Both the position numbers and the translations under genes were made by a program. The notes below the pieces were generated by a model that did no database searches, was not told the DNA's origin, and worked only from the letters and a program-made list of their open reading frames with translations. Below, piece after piece: positions 11,848-23,825 of a stretch of DNA of 64,000 nucleotides (position 1 is its first letter; the number at the start of each line of letters is the position of its first letter). Source of the DNA: Eledone cirrhosa (taxonomy: Eukaryota). The stretch is taken from assembly GCA_964016885.1 (NCBI GenBank), contig OZ024741.1, positions 108,748,001 through 108,812,000 of the forward strand, given 5' to 3'.

Positions 11848-14064
11848 TATATAAAGAAAGAAAGATGAAATCGAAAATGCAACTGGAGTCTTATTTTTTT
11901 AAAAATATATATATTTATTTGGTTCCTTTACCGGTTTCGCAGTTCTTCTGCTTTTCAAAAGTAGAGTTGAGATGGAGGGTCTGTGGTTTTTCTCACATCT
12001 GGTTGGTCATTGAATGTTACTTGTTTTATATGGAAAAACGTGGCTCGAAACGCCAGGTTTTTAGAGAAGTAATTTTATTGGTTACTCAATAAGTATAATA
12101 AATTTCGCGCCAGTTCGCGTTATAAAGTTCTTCAAACAAGGGGGGGGGGATCAGGTTGTTTTTTCATATATGAGTGTTTGAATTTCTTTTTACTTAAAAA
12201 GTATCGAAGAGTATCAAAAATAGTAGAACAATTGGTGTATGTAAATGGAGGTGAAGGAATAATTGTCATGTAAACAATACCTGCTAATCACCTCCAACCA
12301 CCCAAAGCACACGAAGACGAACATTCCTTTTAACCTAGCAAGAAGAATTTGCACAATTGTCTCCAATTATGAAACGCGAAATAAAAGACTTCAAGAATTA
12401 AAGGAAATTCTACTCGAAAGACAATACCCACCATTACTAATAAATGCTAAAGCAATAGCTATTGATGAATTACGAAAACAGAATTCAAGGTACGTCCAAT
12501 ATTCTAGCATATATCTCAACACACAACCCAAGAAATGCGGAAGCTTACAACACTATTCACAAGAACATCCCACTACTGAAACAAGACCCAAAATAATCGA
12601 AAGCAAAAGACAACCGAAATCACTGAAAACATTACTCACCAATGCTAAATTACCTAACACAAACCCACAACCAACTGTCAAAAAATGTGGTCGCTTTAAT
12701 TGTGGAACCTGTACTCACCTCATTGAAGGCAACACGTATACATTTAAATCAGGACAAAATTTTGCTGTAAAAAATCACTTCACTTGCTCATCAAAAAATC
12801 TATTTTATGCCATTAAATGTAAAGGATGCAATGAAGATTATATAGGACAAACTAAACTCACACTCAGAAACAGAATGACAGTTCATCGCCAATAATTACG
12901 AGATCCAACCACGAGACAGATACCACTAAGCGCACAATAAGACGTATGCGCAAGTAATAATTACCCAAATTCCAAGTCTTCCCATTTTATCTTTGCGCTA
13001 ACAATACAACAGAACAAATACGAATAAATAAGGAAAATATGTTTATTCAAAAATATAGACCAGCATTAAATATGGTTTAATATACATTATGTCAACACTA
13101 TAACATGCTAACCATCCAAACAGACACATAACACCTTCTACTTTAGAAAATAAAAACCAGAACTAAATAAACCTTAACATACGTTTGCGCTGACAATACA
13201 ACATAACAAATACGAATAAGTAAGGAAAATATGTTCATTCAAAAATATTCCTACTAACGGAATCATTTTCCTACACACACACACACAATATATATTCTCT
13301 TCATCTTAACATGCTAACCATACTCCTCCACACACATAATACCCATACACAGACATAATACCCCACACACACATACACACACACAACTCCCTCCCCCATT
13401 TCTACTAATAGAATCACTTCCCTACACACATATACACACACACAAAATATATATATTCTCTCCATCTTAACATACTCCCACACACACACATAACACCCAT
13501 ATATATACACACACACACAACTCCCTCCCCAATTTCTACTAATAGAATCATCTTCCTATACACACACACACACACACACACACAAGCACACAGATAAACA
13601 TACATATCTTTACTTTCTTTATTTCAATAGAAAATCTGAATTCTGACATCCCAGCGAACCAACCATATTCACTGAACCAGAACAATTCTCCCATCCCATT
13701 TCTCTTGACCATTATCTTTTAACGCGAACTGGCGCGAAATTTATTATATTTATTGACCAACCAATCTAATTATTTCTTTAAAAACCTGGCGTTTCGAGCC
13801 ACTTTTTTCCATATAAAACAAGTAACATTCAAAGACCAACCAGATGTGAGAAAAACCACAGACCCTCCATCTCAACTCTACTTTTGAAAAGAAGACGAAC
13901 TGCGAAACCGGTAAAGGAACCAAATACATATATATATATATATTTTTTTTTTAAAAATAAGACTCCAGTTGCATTTTCGAGTTCATCTTTTTTTCTTCAT
14001 ACTTTCACTCGTGTAGGACACCTCGGTGATTTTTCATTTTGTAATAAAAAACCTCACTTTCTAA
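11848..14064 (+). mobile_element. 5'-truncated Penelope-like element (Neptune-like) with inverted 5' pLTR (11848-12123), 3' pLTR plus tail (13718-14064), in (TA)n
   Basis: pLTRs are reverse complements; U3:A8 HHR motifs at 11926-11961 (-) and 13881-13916 (+); internal GIY-YIG ORF. Confidence 0.9.
12270..13080 (+). pseudogene. PLE RT thumb, Cys linker and GIY-YIG endonuclease (disrupted)
   Basis: SNHPKHTKTNIPFNLARRI; KCGRFNCGTC; FTCSSKNLFYAIKCKGCNEDYIGQT...RMTVH. Confidence 0.92.
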
Positions 14065-14299
14065 TATATATATATATATATATATATATATATATATATA
14101 TATATATATATATATATATGTGTGTGTGTGTGTATATACAGTGAGAGAGAGAGAAGGAGAGGAAGGTATGAAACCGACCGTGACGCCAAACGGATTCGGC
14201 TTGTGTTCAGCAAGACTTTTCAGGAGAGAACACACACTAGAAAAGAGTTGCTGAACATAAGCGAACATCTGTCTGATCTTCCTGGTGTTCTGGGTAGCG

Positions 14300-14830
14300 G
14301 AATGTGGCTTTCCTAGTATGGTCTTAGTCCAGCCACATCCTCTTCCTATCCTCGGGCCTTGTTCCCCGGATCTGACTCAGACGCCCTCTCTTCCCACCTG
14401 TAATCTCGTTGATGATCGTCCAGTCTCTTTACACTTACACCTGTCCTCCGCCCACACTACACTGCTCTCTGGCCTCAGGCTCAGCGGTACAGATTTCTTC
14501 CTTCCTCACCCCCACGTTCTTCTTCCTCTTCCCCGTAGAATCAGCATGGAATTGGTCTTTGGCAGCTCTCATGTGTATGCAGAGTTGCCGTCCCTCCTCT
14601 TTCTCTCTCTTCTCGATTCTGCCACTGCAGTGGTGAAGTACCCGTACCGCCTCATCACATTTTCTTTAGTCCCCACATTCTCTCACTTCTGTGCCTCTTC
14701 ATATAGAGCACTTAACCTACTTCTTGCCCGTACTCTGTACATCTCCTGTAAATTATAATCTTCCTTGAAAGTTCTCCAGTCATAGAGAGCTCTCCAGATC
14801 TTAGCCTTACTCTTACTTAAACTCACACCT
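14300..14830 (-). pseudogene. LINE ORF2 remnant, EN-RT linker region (RTE-like, tentative)
   Basis: Manual minus-strand translation WTIINEITGGKRGRLSQIRGTRPEDRKRMWLD; clade uncertain. Confidence 0.5.
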
Positions 14831-14861
14831 TATGTATACATATATACATATATATAAAGTC

Positions 14862-21530: not shown

Positions 21531-21534
21531 TAAA

Positions 21535-23400
21535 TTAATAAAAACAATGAATAAAACAAAGAACAAGTTCCTTATATTAAAAAATTCATCATTTCACGAT
21601 CGTTTCTAGGATATATATGTGTGTTGGTATGTATATCATATAGATCTATGTAAAAAGTTTACAAACTATCAGAGGAAATATACATACCCTCACATATATA
21701 TGCTGTCTTCAGAAATAATGATATTTGTTTATTGAAAAAAACCCACAAAGATTTAATATAATAGGTCTGTTTGGAACAGGTTTTGAATTGACCAATAGAA
21801 AAGTAGTAAGAGATCAAGTTGATAGAATAGTAGTAGTAGAAATATAATTTAGGGGTAGAGGAATTTAGACATAAGTTTTGAATGGAAAGAATACTTTGAA
21901 TGAAAAGAATACTTTGGGGATGAAAAGAGGTCTAGCCGGTGAAGGTACACGAACATTTGATGCTATTAAAGAATAATGTTAATGTTAAAACCGAAGGAGA
22001 ATAAAATTTTAGGGTAAAGGTGTTAGTGAGAAATACCAATCTTATTTAAACCAAAAGGAATCTAGATCTATAACAAGAAATTAAATTAATTGATAGGTAT
22101 ACTTATAGGGATACATTTATATTAATTCATATGGATGTGATAAATAAGAATTAGATGTTATTAAAGAATGTTGTTAAAAACGAAGGAAAATAAAATTTTG
22201 GGATAAATGTAGTAGTGAGAAATACCAATCTTATATAGACTACAAGGAATCTAGATTCATAACAGGAAATTAAATTAATTTATATGTATACTTTTAGGTA
22301 TTAATTTTAGGAAAAGAGAGCTGTAAGAGGGAAATAAAATTATGAAGTTCTCTGTAGTAAAGTAGTAATTATAGGTTAACTAAATTAAAAAAATTAATTA
22401 TAATAATATGTAAAATAAAAGTGTAAGGTGTATATTAATTAGGTTTATAATATTTGAAAGTTCTTCTAATGCTATGATTGGAAGATATAATTAATTCTTG
22501 TCGCTTATTTAATAGGATATCCTTAGATTTCATTATTTCAAAAAGTTCCTGGGAGCATAATCTACACTCATGTCTGTTATTTTGATCAGGGGTGGCCCTT
22601 TTGAGCACACTCCAGGTCAGGTTGTAATCGATATTCTTTTTTCTATAATTATTAATTGTTTCAGCCAATGATGTTGTATTAGCTCATGCAGCATTTTTAA
22701 AACTATGTTTGTGGGTATTAAATCTTACTTTAAATTGGTTAAACGTATCTCCTATATATGAATAGGTTGAATCCTTAGTGCTAATTTTACATTTATATAC
22801 TATGTTATTAATAAGAGAATTTCCCTTTAATGGGCAATTTCTTTTGTTTCTATAGTTACAACAATTCGTGAATATTATATCAGGGAGTTAGTCAAATTTG
22901 GTGTGGAATTTACTCGACGTTATATGTGAAGGAGATGGTGGTTTGTTGCGGTTTATTTTAGTATTATGTTTGGTTTGATGTGTTGGTGGTATATTCGTGA
23001 TTTCTTTACATTTATATGCATTGTACCCACTTATATTTTGTTGTATATTTTTGGTAGTGGAATAGGAAAATTTGACAGTTGGTCTATTTAAAATTTGATG
23101 GTATATATGGTTTGGCGGGAAGTTTTTCTCTAGGATAGTAACAAATATTTTAGGGATATTATCATTAATTTGTAGATTAAATGGAGCATGATACCAAGTA
23201 ACTCGTCTATTACGGTTTCGATGTTGTTTTTTATATTTATACGATGTATCAGGATGTTTACTAAGAGAATTAGTATATATCTTGACTGTTTTCTTGTGAT
23301 TTTCATCGAAAATCTTTGAATGCATCTTCTCTTTTCATGATATTTGGATTACATTGAGTTCTTCATACGGATTGGACACTACCGTATATCTTGGTAGATT
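21535..23400 (-). mobile_element. Decayed Naiad-like PLE: ORF remnant 22435-23325, long-stem-II HHR motif downstream at 21587-21720
   Basis: RNRRVTWYHAPFN...VKFSYS; CNYRNKRNCPL.GN...IVYKC...YIGDT...FKVRFNTH; CRLCSQE; cattattt-CTGAAGA-long hairpin-GAAA-cgatcg-TG-aaatgatg. Confidence 0.88.
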
Positions 23401-23472
23401 TCTCTCTCTCACTCTCTCTCTCTCTCTCTCTCTCTCTATATATATATATATATATATATATATATATATATA

Positions 23473-23825
23473 TTAGAAAGTGAGGTTTTTTTTATAAAAT
23501 GAAAAATAACCGAGGTGTCCTACACGAGTGAAAGTATAAAGAAAAAAAGATGAAATCGAAAATGCAACTGGAGTCTTATTTTGTTTTAAAATATATATAT
23601 TTATTTGGTTCCTTTACCGGTTTCGCAGTTCTTCTGCTTTTCAAAAGTAGAGTTGAGATGGAGGGTCTGTGGTTTTTCTCACATCTGTGTGAGAAAAACC
23701 ACAGACCCTCCATCTCAACTCTACTTTTGAAAAGCAGAAGAACTGCGAAACCGGTAAAGGAACCAAATAAATATATATATTTTAAAACAAAATAAGACTC
23801 CAGTTGCATTTTCGATTTCATCTTT
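23473..23825 (-). mobile_element. Solo fold-back pLTR (family of 11848-14064): tail 23473-23540, near-perfect palindrome ~23546-23825; HHRs 23612-23647 (-) and 23724-23759 (+)
   Basis: Mirror-image ORFs on both strands in the ORF track; same U3:A8 HHR. Confidence 0.92.

Follow-up and report, generated by a model that had tools for sequence, protein, structure and literature searches.

Minimal and variant type I hammerhead ribozymes are known from the pLTRs of metazoan Penelope-like elements (PLEs), among them a U3-A8 variant in Schistosoma Cercyon, and our literature search found U3-A8 cores only in that report (Cervera and De la Pena, 2014, PMC4209133). In the parts of that paper considered here, the motifs show the same core covariation as those described below (~1,300 matches there), a palindromic 15.2-16.2/loop 3, G10.1-C11.1 and a short helix I, and they occur mostly as solo motifs and also as opposite-strand pairs 100-700 bp apart. 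They differ from ours in host, in the ORF, which is Neptune-type here, and in helix II, which is 7-8 bp in the Schistosoma families and 4 bp here; a mapping of U:A versus C:G on a tree is not described in those parts.

The second point of comparison is the Neptune clade of EN+ PLEs, for which the relevant sections of two papers (Arkhipova, 2013, PMC3846280; Craig, 2021, PMC8557442) describe features that recur at our locus: a C-terminal GIY-YIG domain with a CX2-5CxxC linker, an inverted truncated copy at the 5' end, a one-sided tail, microsatellite targets, host DNA captured near the inverted junction, and TATA/Inr-like motifs in the pLTRs. The tail is ~65 nt here versus 30-40 nt in those insertions. 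Biochemical work covers PAc, a Poseidon element of Anolis, and the portions of that study used here report that in vitro the PLE protein nicks and extends both target strands, that reverse transcription starts at two internal RNA sites delimiting the tail, and that RNA reads ending at the hammerhead cut site are absent and cleavage is not needed (Frangieh, 2024, PMC11167929). PAc resembles the model proposed below in the extension of both nicked strands, in its two start sites bracketing the tail, in its AT-rich targets and in a protein-assisted hammerhead; it differs in clade, in its C3-G8 core and in having its start sites inside the ORF. Finally, animal non-LTR retrozymes are likewise ORF-less, hammerhead-bearing and PLE pLTR-derived, and, according to the part of the preprint considered, form head-to-tail tandem arrays from which unit-length or circular RNA can arise (bioRxiv 10.64898/2026.07.22.740005), whereas the palindromes at our locus are head-to-head, and their read-through transcripts are predicted to fold into a hairpin that hides the motif.

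Published work thus already covers the U3-A8 core, its pairing on opposite strands, the inverted pLTR, the tail and the (TA)n target (Arkhipova, 2013; Cervera and De la Pena, 2014; Craig, 2021). An earlier note on this DNA had implied novelty for the U3-A8 PLE hammerheads and their opposite-strand pairing, but both are in the 2014 paper (PMC4209133), and its framing adds little when the inverted tailed insertions are known as well and the ORF is a dead stump. This locus contributes two observations: the ends of all four palindrome arms lie at 11993-12001, and in one palindrome the tailed arm is shorter than its partner. Stumps without an ORF, joined head to head (~150+215 nt) and stopping at a single position, are not described in the parts of PMC8557442 and PMC3846280 considered here; older PLE papers may contain them.

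The window, a 64,000-nt stretch of the Eledone cirrhosa assembly, contains six U3:A8 minimal hammerhead cores of one repeat family, two around an ORF remnant and two in each of two palindromes. The motif ctt-TTGAAAA-gcag(aagaa)ctgc-GAAA-ccgg-TA-aag is present as originally described and is intact five times, with cores at 11958(-), 19062(-), 19136(+), 23644(-) and 23727(+). The first of these, a minimal type I motif at 11926..11961 on the minus strand, has a predicted cut after 11929. The sixth core, at 13884 (motif 13881..13916, plus strand), has one broken stem II pair (stems I and II, +3.7 vs -3.0 kcal/mol), and this damaged copy is the sole hammerhead both in sense and downstream of the ORF remnant. 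A strict motif scan returned 14 matches in the window versus 0-1 in each of 10 block shuffles; Rfam at E<=1 gave no hammerhead family among the matches listed (150 of 178), only hairpin and miRNA look-alikes. Stem I is 3-4 bp; stem II of the U3:A8 motifs is 4 bp with G10.1-C11.1, and A9 directly precedes G10.1, lacking the intervening unpaired base that is common, though no requirement, in the set of Cervera and De la Pena (2014). As a monomer, the motif shows no folding advantage over shuffles (z -1.22 to +0.10), the self-complementary ACCGGU stem III duplex is worth -8.3 kcal/mol, and cofolding forms it for two of three copies tested, the damaged copy failing. Cleavage probably requires dimerisation of the hammerhead through ACCGGU and may be aided by protein. 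Activity of such hammerhead variants may already be on record (Lunse et al., 2016, as cited in the review PMC6765202).

Related loci suggest that the core is maintained. A sense hammerhead follows the ORF in 18 of the 26 loci that have at least 150 nt of 3' flank, versus 1 match in the 26 for the antisense control, and with N3 and N8 left free the pair is Watson-Crick in 18/18 motifs (14 C:G, 4 U:A). On a quick tree of 39 of the 65 prepared rows, with labels for 18 rows outside the window, U:A requires 5 changes, at least 3 of them forced by starred branches. That these 18 relatives have switched repeatedly between C3:G8 and U3:A8, none of them showing a mismatched state, argues that the catalytic core may be under selection. 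As a clade marker, U3:A8 was rejected: 500/500 label shuffles on the quick tree were as low. An intron was also considered, its GT lying in stem III and its AG ~97 nt away behind a pyrimidine tract, and is unsupported; the stem III palindromes of several relatives have no GT.

The ORF described earlier as Neptune-like, and as placing the mobilising enzyme inside the window, proved to be a broken remnant at 12272..13080 (+). It is 5'-truncated and retains the thumb/linker, a C-x4-C-x2-C Zn linker and the GIY-YIG endonuclease; the RT catalytic core is missing. By tblastn, 12272-13077 corresponds to residues ~488-772 of a 772-aa relative, and the best relatives are RT+GIY-YIG proteins of 750-770 aa (58% to P0001; Pfam). 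Its reading frame is interrupted by a stop at 12893, where 99.9% of X1 depth has a different sequence, and by one or more frameshifts near 12965. Of the CCHH set, the two Cys (a CxxC lying between YAI and YIG) and the first His are present, and the second His falls at 12937-12939, where the window copy differs from nearly all other sequence data. The linker is invariant in 17/17 aligned rows. Counted by eye, 24 residues separate it from the first endonuclease Cys, and the same by-eye count, which is no published diagnostic, gives 25 and 27 in two Neptune rows and ~7 in three Nematis rows of the figure used (Craig, 2021, Fig. S2, PMC8557442). By this motif comparison, the remnant appears to fit the Neptune clade in its long spacer and in a CX2-5CxxC linker that it shares with Nematis. 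The presence of the mobilising enzyme in the window is not supported, the remnant being broken and devoid of an RT core.

The remnant is followed by a 3' UTR (13081..13716, +) that holds a duplicated ORF end, also present in X1, X11 and X5, and a CA-rich 134-nt tandem repeat, and then by a 3' pLTR in ORF sense (13717..14064, +) with a ~65-nt tail ending in (AT)28. On the other side lies an inverted, 5'-truncated pLTR/3'-UTR arm (11850..12207, -), tail-less, with its left end in (TA)6. This arm extends beyond 12125 to ~12207: a single X5 contig covers 11930-12195, and X1 depth is 80-200k over 12032-12211. Between arm and remnant is a 67-nt filler (12208..12274; X1 depth ~7, 7.11) that is an inverted copy of the host flank at 11387..11453 (66/67 identical) and shares AAA with the ORF start. 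A pLTR is found on both sides of the ORF, as had been claimed for 11848-14064, with the qualifications that the left one is inverted and set off by host filler and that the right hammerhead is damaged.

Such an arrangement might be composite, a truncated ORF copy joined by a later, separate arm insertion, so that members of the one family would flank each other here by chance. Over ~276 nt, 18 substitutions and a 9-nt indel do separate the arm from the 3' pLTR copy, and upstream of 12125/13717 the two diverge, with weak alignment further up; filler separates arm from ORF, and (TA)n sites are struck repeatedly. We nevertheless regard this history as unlikely. The joint has no (TA)n, arm and remnant each carry private changes, and the pairing of a short end with a tail end is that of the palindromes. 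The same arm-to-ORF geometry also occurs at two other loci, one in X11 (12046->13044, 110 reads with one start) and one in X1 (12201->13029, one contig, 28 nt on the short side). These joints answer in the affirmative the question that the earlier note had set for its own proposal, whether the pLTR is tied to this ORF elsewhere.

Both solo palindromes are real. Palindrome A (18952..19308; cores 19062(-) and 19136(+)) consists of a tail-less left arm to 19101 and a tailed right arm from 19101, with both ends in (TA)n; the arms differ at 9/146 positions, and a single T/A tract accounts for 8 of these. Palindrome B (23473..23831; cores 23644(-) and 23727(+)) has a tailed left arm to 23687 and a tail-less right arm from 23688, with 1/140 differences. 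The family has two fixed 3' ends ~65 nt apart, a short end and a tail end, and the tail is on exactly one arm in 3/3 inverted structures (A, B and the ORF-bearing copy). Every insertion end is embedded in (TA)n or (CT)n(TA)n, which would mask a target-site duplication. The further fragment reported near 59062 is present at 59064..59207 (+), between two (TA)n runs, and lacks a hammerhead core; it begins within 1 nt of the position at which the ribozyme is predicted to cut and extends to the tail end. Its start has TA microhomology, in 215 nt that contain 16 TA sites, and is the only pointer to self-cleavage of the motif, at which it hints.

The pLTR hammerhead, the inverted 5'-truncated copy and the one-sided tail of the window family are traits of EN+ PLEs. 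The ORF remnant, the palindromes and the 59064 fragment have sequence in common and very probably belong to one PLE family, and, as proposed, the palindromes are short inverted insertions of it, given the common tail asymmetry and (TA)n targets. It is probable, further, that an abundant Neptune-type PLE family targeting (TA)n left all four pieces as dead insertions.

In principle, such palindromes could belong to a non-autonomous, MITE-like or retrozyme-like family whose copying unit is the whole palindrome, or they could be artefacts of assembly. They are short and inserted at TA, and hammerhead-bearing non-autonomous PLE derivatives exist, as the part of the preprint considered describes (bioRxiv 10.64898/2026.07.22.740005). 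Yet A and B have different centres and carry different variants on both arms, and an artefact would give identical arms and mirrored flanks, neither of which is seen; we consider these origins very improbable. As named classes, a MITE was rejected on the differing centres and the ~65-nt tail on one arm, versus a fixed internal sequence with symmetric terminal inverted repeats, and a non-LTR retrozyme on the head-to-head or solo copies, the window holding no head-to-tail hammerhead array.

Arms of one palindrome may also arise by fold-back self-priming, in which one cDNA folds and copies itself into the second arm, the mechanism implied by the term fold-back in the earlier note and favoured by Arkhipova (2013, PMC3846280) in the part considered. 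Loops of 3-4 nt, variants common to both arms within each palindrome, the near-identical arms of B and its geometry, in which the tailed arm is the longer one, all suit this idea. Palindrome A does not: its arms differ in the T/A tract, and its tailed arm begins 4 nt short of the tail-less arm's end and so is the shorter of the two at the centre, a geometry that self-copying of a hairpin cannot yield. In the ORF-bearing copy, host filler separates two arms of unequal length and differing sequence. Fold-back thus seems improbable, and palindrome A fits twin priming of both target strands better, a mechanism that we think likely from the structure of the insertions.

Where the arms end bears on what was copied. 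The four ends map to 11997, 11993, 12001 and 11997, a candidate RNA 5' end (11993..12001, -). A TATAAAA box, spotted post hoc after the arm ends, lies at 12024..12030 (-); its first T is 30 nt upstream of 12000, itself 42 nt above U3 of the hammerhead core, and the chance of TATAWAW inside a given 5-nt window here is ~1%. It is a putative promoter element. The top X1 loose end among those listed is 11999 (16 contigs, agreement 0.48; five others listed have 1-6 contigs), and in X11, which is RAD-seq, 173 reads depart at 12000 into TATATA; loose ends of similar size occur there at 11965, 12152, 12184, 12804 and 12960, so that 12000 is not unique in X11. These counts leave out 11852-11929, where reads were cut, and hence starts at the predicted cut site. 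Summed X1 depth falls from 1.51M through 437k to 81k across 11942-12076 and is 16-84k over the ORF (12302-12976), neither being a copy number. Three X1 joints exit at 11993, 11995 and 11997 and re-enter at 11941-11968; they may be further head-to-head insertions.

Four arm ends within 11993-12001 below TATAAAA, together with the shorter tailed arm of palindrome A, would favour two run-off cDNAs from an RNA start over fold-back or random truncation. That 12000 is the RNA start site has, on these sequence features, about an even chance of being right. The main competitor, which also assumes twin priming, is that the stumps end at an RT stall just upstream of the structured hammerhead region, with 12000 as the stall site; of the readings considered, it comes nearest to the extreme 5' truncation of the earlier note. 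Ends also cluster at 11965-11967, immediately above stem I (169 loose reads; 446/607 molecules ending at 11967), which points that way; the distance above the core at which other families in the window are truncated varies, and by eye three other families lack a TATA box 30 nt above their truncation points; and TATAWAW occurs within 140 nt above the core in only 4/18 relatives, at varied distances. On this last count, a TATA box at -30 was rejected as a clade trait. Against a stall, the ends of all four arms share a 9-nt interval at the textbook distance of +1 from a TATA box, and the MFE fold of 11880-12010 has no strong structure (z -1.22). We hold the stall to be possible, though doubtful.

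With an RNA start at 12000, twin priming would proceed as follows. Both nicked strands of a (TA)n target would be primed, one at each RT start site, and the two cDNAs would run toward the RNA 5' end and then be end-joined head to head. If both reached ~+1 (12000), the product would be a palindrome of 150+215 nt; if one template were a longer read-through RNA, an inverted arm next to an ORF remnant would result, joined in this case through host filler; and an RNA already cut by the hammerhead could give the 59064 fragment, the one such case. In read-through transcripts of the palindromes, the hammerhead is predicted to be buried in a ~145-bp hairpin and inactive.

The formation of PLE inverted structures is listed as unresolved in the part of Craig (2021, PMC8557442) considered here, and the arm ends supply a precise genomic prediction for it, an RNA start ~42 nt above the core. 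Of the 20 inverted structures examined here, 11 carry hammerhead motifs, and 272/275 near-perfect inverted 50-mers lie in them. A broader and unlikely reading is that, because PLE reverse transcription starts internally near the RNA 5' end, the default PLE product would be a run-off to the transcription start, two-strand priming would turn it into a perfect ~150-bp hairpin upon insertion, and PLE stumps, made by many families in parallel, would be the genome's main maker of near-perfect dsRNA. Octopus reportedly has exceptional dsRNA potential and A-to-I hyper-editing (Porath, 2017), and if that reading were true, PLE stumps would be the source of both, to which none has been assigned. Should they supply most near-perfect hairpins genome-wide, they would bear on host RNA editing and on the origin of small RNAs.

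Self-comparison of the window places four stretches in one repeat family, at 11850–14064, 18952–19308 (palindrome A), 23473–23831 (palindrome B), and 59064–59207. The minimal type I hammerhead with a U3:A8 core that the earlier note described in the terminal repeat (pLTR) is real: five occurrences in the window are intact, and a sixth, at 13884, has lost one base pair of stem II. In a strict hammerhead scan the window had 14 matches, vs 0–1 in each of ten block shuffles; of the 178 Rfam matches to the window, the 150 listed include no hammerhead. Computed folding of the monomer motif is no better than that of shuffled sequence. 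The sequences of palindrome A and of the arm (an inverted pLTR/3′-UTR piece left of the ORF remnant) are predicted to cofold as a dimer via the ACCGGU duplex of stem III, and the damaged 13884 copy is not. On the forward strand (13911–14017), a donor-like GT within stem III and an acceptor-like AG in the tail lie about 97 nt apart; judged from sequence, splicing between them would take out the cut site, and the pair is not conserved among relatives.

The ORF beside the pLTR is a remnant of a Penelope-like element (PLE). The last 302 residues of its best relative, protein P0001, match the window at 12272–12967 and 12964–13077 (tblastn), covering thumb and linker, a C-x4-C-x2-C motif, and a GIY-YIG domain (Pfam E-value 0.017, below the cut-off); the remnant lacks the RT core and is damaged by a frameshift and by a stop at 12893, the latter a private change of the window copy: 99.9% of the depth in the sequencing data set X1 differs there. 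All 31 matches in a protein search are 372–782 aa long, and RT and GIY-YIG domains occur in many of them; identity reaches 58% in the top match and 52% in the highest-ranking named ones, which come from Argonauta hians. Counted by eye, the linker-to-endonuclease spacer is 24 residues, like two Neptune rows (25 and 27) and unlike three Nematis rows (about 7) in Fig. S2 of Craig 2021 (PMC8557442), so the label ‘Neptune-like’ is fair. Without an RT core and broken as it is, the window copy cannot have mobilised any element, contrary to the proposal that the mobilising enzyme lies within the window.

The proposed family link between pLTR and PLE stands. Four sequencing runs were compared with 11852–13180, and among the 15 of 43 joints listed, two connect arm to ORF end at other loci, 12046 to 13044 (110 reads, one start) and 12201 to 13029 (one contig), thin but direct evidence that the pLTR belongs with this ORF elsewhere too. 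At the clade level, 56 related metagenome loci were collected, 26 of which extend 150 nt or more past the ORF end; in 18 of the 26 a sense-strand hammerhead follows within 1 kb, and a single antisense match was seen among the 26. When the scan placed no constraint on positions 3 and 8, all 18 pairs were Watson–Crick (14 C:G and 4 U:A). U:A has a scattered distribution on a quick 39-row tree, with five changes, at least three forced by well-supported branches, and L010 (U:A) neighbours L007 (C:G). Pairing that is retained while its letters switch suggests that the hammerhead core is under selection in these relatives. Among them, L004, L005, L007, L010, and L011 have an apparent long open frame (ORF1) about 100–130 nt after the hammerhead and before the RT frame, L004 being a 3699-nt tandem or circular unit (1–1655 = 3700–5354); L026 and L027 carry, directly 5′ of the hammerhead, a pyrimidine tract with an AG a few bases before stem I, resembling the intron end reported in Drosophila Penelope.

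The left flank of the window ORF is the inverted arm, reaching about 12207 (one X5 contig covers 11930–12195, and high depth persists to 12211). Arm and ORF are separated at their head-to-head joint by 67 nt of captured host DNA (12208–12274), an inverted copy of the flank at 11387–11453, about 400 nt upstream of the insertion; X1 depth over this filler is 7, vs tens of thousands on both sides. The arm differs from the 3′ copy (13717–14064) by 18 substitutions and a 9-nt indel, with weak alignment further upstream, a divergence that probably reflects two RNA variants, or two events, as their source.

The family has two alternative 3′ ends, spaced about 65 nt; every copy shows one or the other, and the three inverted structures each combine both. 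For another PLE, Frangieh 2024 (PMC11167929) describes both target strands as nicked and extended, and a tail bracketed by two internal start sites. Projected on the arm, the palindrome arms end at 11997, 11993, 12001, and 11997; the leading X1 loose end among those listed is 11999 (16 contigs), in 173 reads of the RAD library X11 the match gives way to TATATA at 12000, and summed depth across about 12000 drops from 437k to 81k. In the element sense, TATAAAA starts at 12030, 30 nt above the C–A step at 12001/12000, to be read beside the usual TATA-to-start spacing rule; its chance is about 1% per given 5-nt window, and it was found post hoc. We infer that the stumps probably form when two cDNAs, each run off to the start of the RNA, are joined head to head. 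The earlier note called them fold-back derivatives, a reading that fails for palindrome A: at its centre the tailed arm is the shorter one, a geometry that self-copying cannot produce. Palindrome B is compatible with both self-copying and run-off cDNAs. The start of the 59064 fragment is no more than one base from the predicted cut, as would be expected of cDNA from cleaved RNA; this is a single case, with TA microhomology where TA occurs at 16 sites in 215 nt.

Against a start site near 12000, X11 has similar-sized ends at 11965, 12152, 12184, 12804, and 12960, a TATA-like box lies within 140 nt of the core in only 4 of 18 relatives, and by eye there is none at the break points of three other window families. 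GCGCGAAA (12103–12110, −; 13732–13739, +), which we take to be an E2F-site-like motif, stands some 100 nt above this candidate; several relatives have TGACGT half-site clusters above the hammerhead in its place. A read-through transcript of each palindrome is computed to form a hairpin (−231 to −253 kcal/mol) in which both motifs are buried, and the stumps are therefore unlikely to be working ribozymes.

Twenty inverted structures of the window were picked by us from self-comparison and an inverted-match search, and a relaxed scan finds a hammerhead-like motif in 11 of them (22 matches in the window vs 0–7 per shuffle, n = 5); U3:A8 is present in three window families. Two of these, with a TTGATAA core, occupy 17121–18240 and 23920–25350 (also 2175–2542), with long palindromic stems III (12 nt in the first, 10 nt in the second); in the second family the stem II region is about 58 nt and the arms are 99% identical, which makes it very young. 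C3:G8 motifs lie in inverted or palindromic insertions at 917–1345, 16463–17110, 35782–37530, 37545–38702, and 43764–44153, most adjoining (TA)n and two with a one-sided extension of 64–104 nt. Both inverted arms at 14852–15590 carry a hammerhead-like motif with C at position 4 (CCGAUGA). By eye, palindromes at 44968–45175 and 45334–45510, both missed by the scan, have their turning point at or within a hammerhead motif, the second palindrome matching the 35782/37412 family and ending within stem II, and a degenerate palindrome (69%) at 35155–35429 has tRNA-derived-looking arms. Broken LINE-like ORF pieces with a weak zf-RVT match and a 70% identical second copy, together with a fragment resembling a DNA transposase, are found at 53088–55515 (+), 4317–5210 (−), and 47972–48550 (+). 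Another ORF piece (31741–32250, +), with no Pfam match, terminates with a C-x-C-x5-C pattern similar to the linker of Hydra-clade PLEs as given in Craig 2021 (PMC8557442).

A near-perfect inverted match within 2 kb was found for 275 of 5482 sampled 50-mers (microsatellites excluded), 272 of them in the 11 hammerhead-bearing structures. Under a rule similar, not identical, to ours, the account in Porath 2017 gives 4.4e-3 for Octopus bimaculoides, calls it exceptional, and omits octopus from repeat annotation. Because the window was selected for such a feature, we offer a link between PLE palindromes and this octopus dsRNA potential as a hypothesis.

Published accounts include a U3-A8 core in Schistosoma PLEs, with opposite-strand pairs 100–700 bp apart (Cervera 2014, PMC4209133), and truncated copies in inverted orientation, one-sided tails, insertion into microsatellites, capture of host DNA, and pLTR motifs resembling a TATA box (Craig 2021, PMC8557442; Arkhipova 2013, PMC3846280); the Drosophila Penelope promoter was mapped as internal and TATA-less (Schostak 2008). 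The literature searched, with Lunse 2016, Arkhipova 2006, and several supplements outside it, held no precedent for the run-off-to-start reading or the dsRNA link. The locus is a real case of an already known kind, and its useful remainder is a sharp, testable prediction on the start of the RNA and the way in which PLE palindromes arise.
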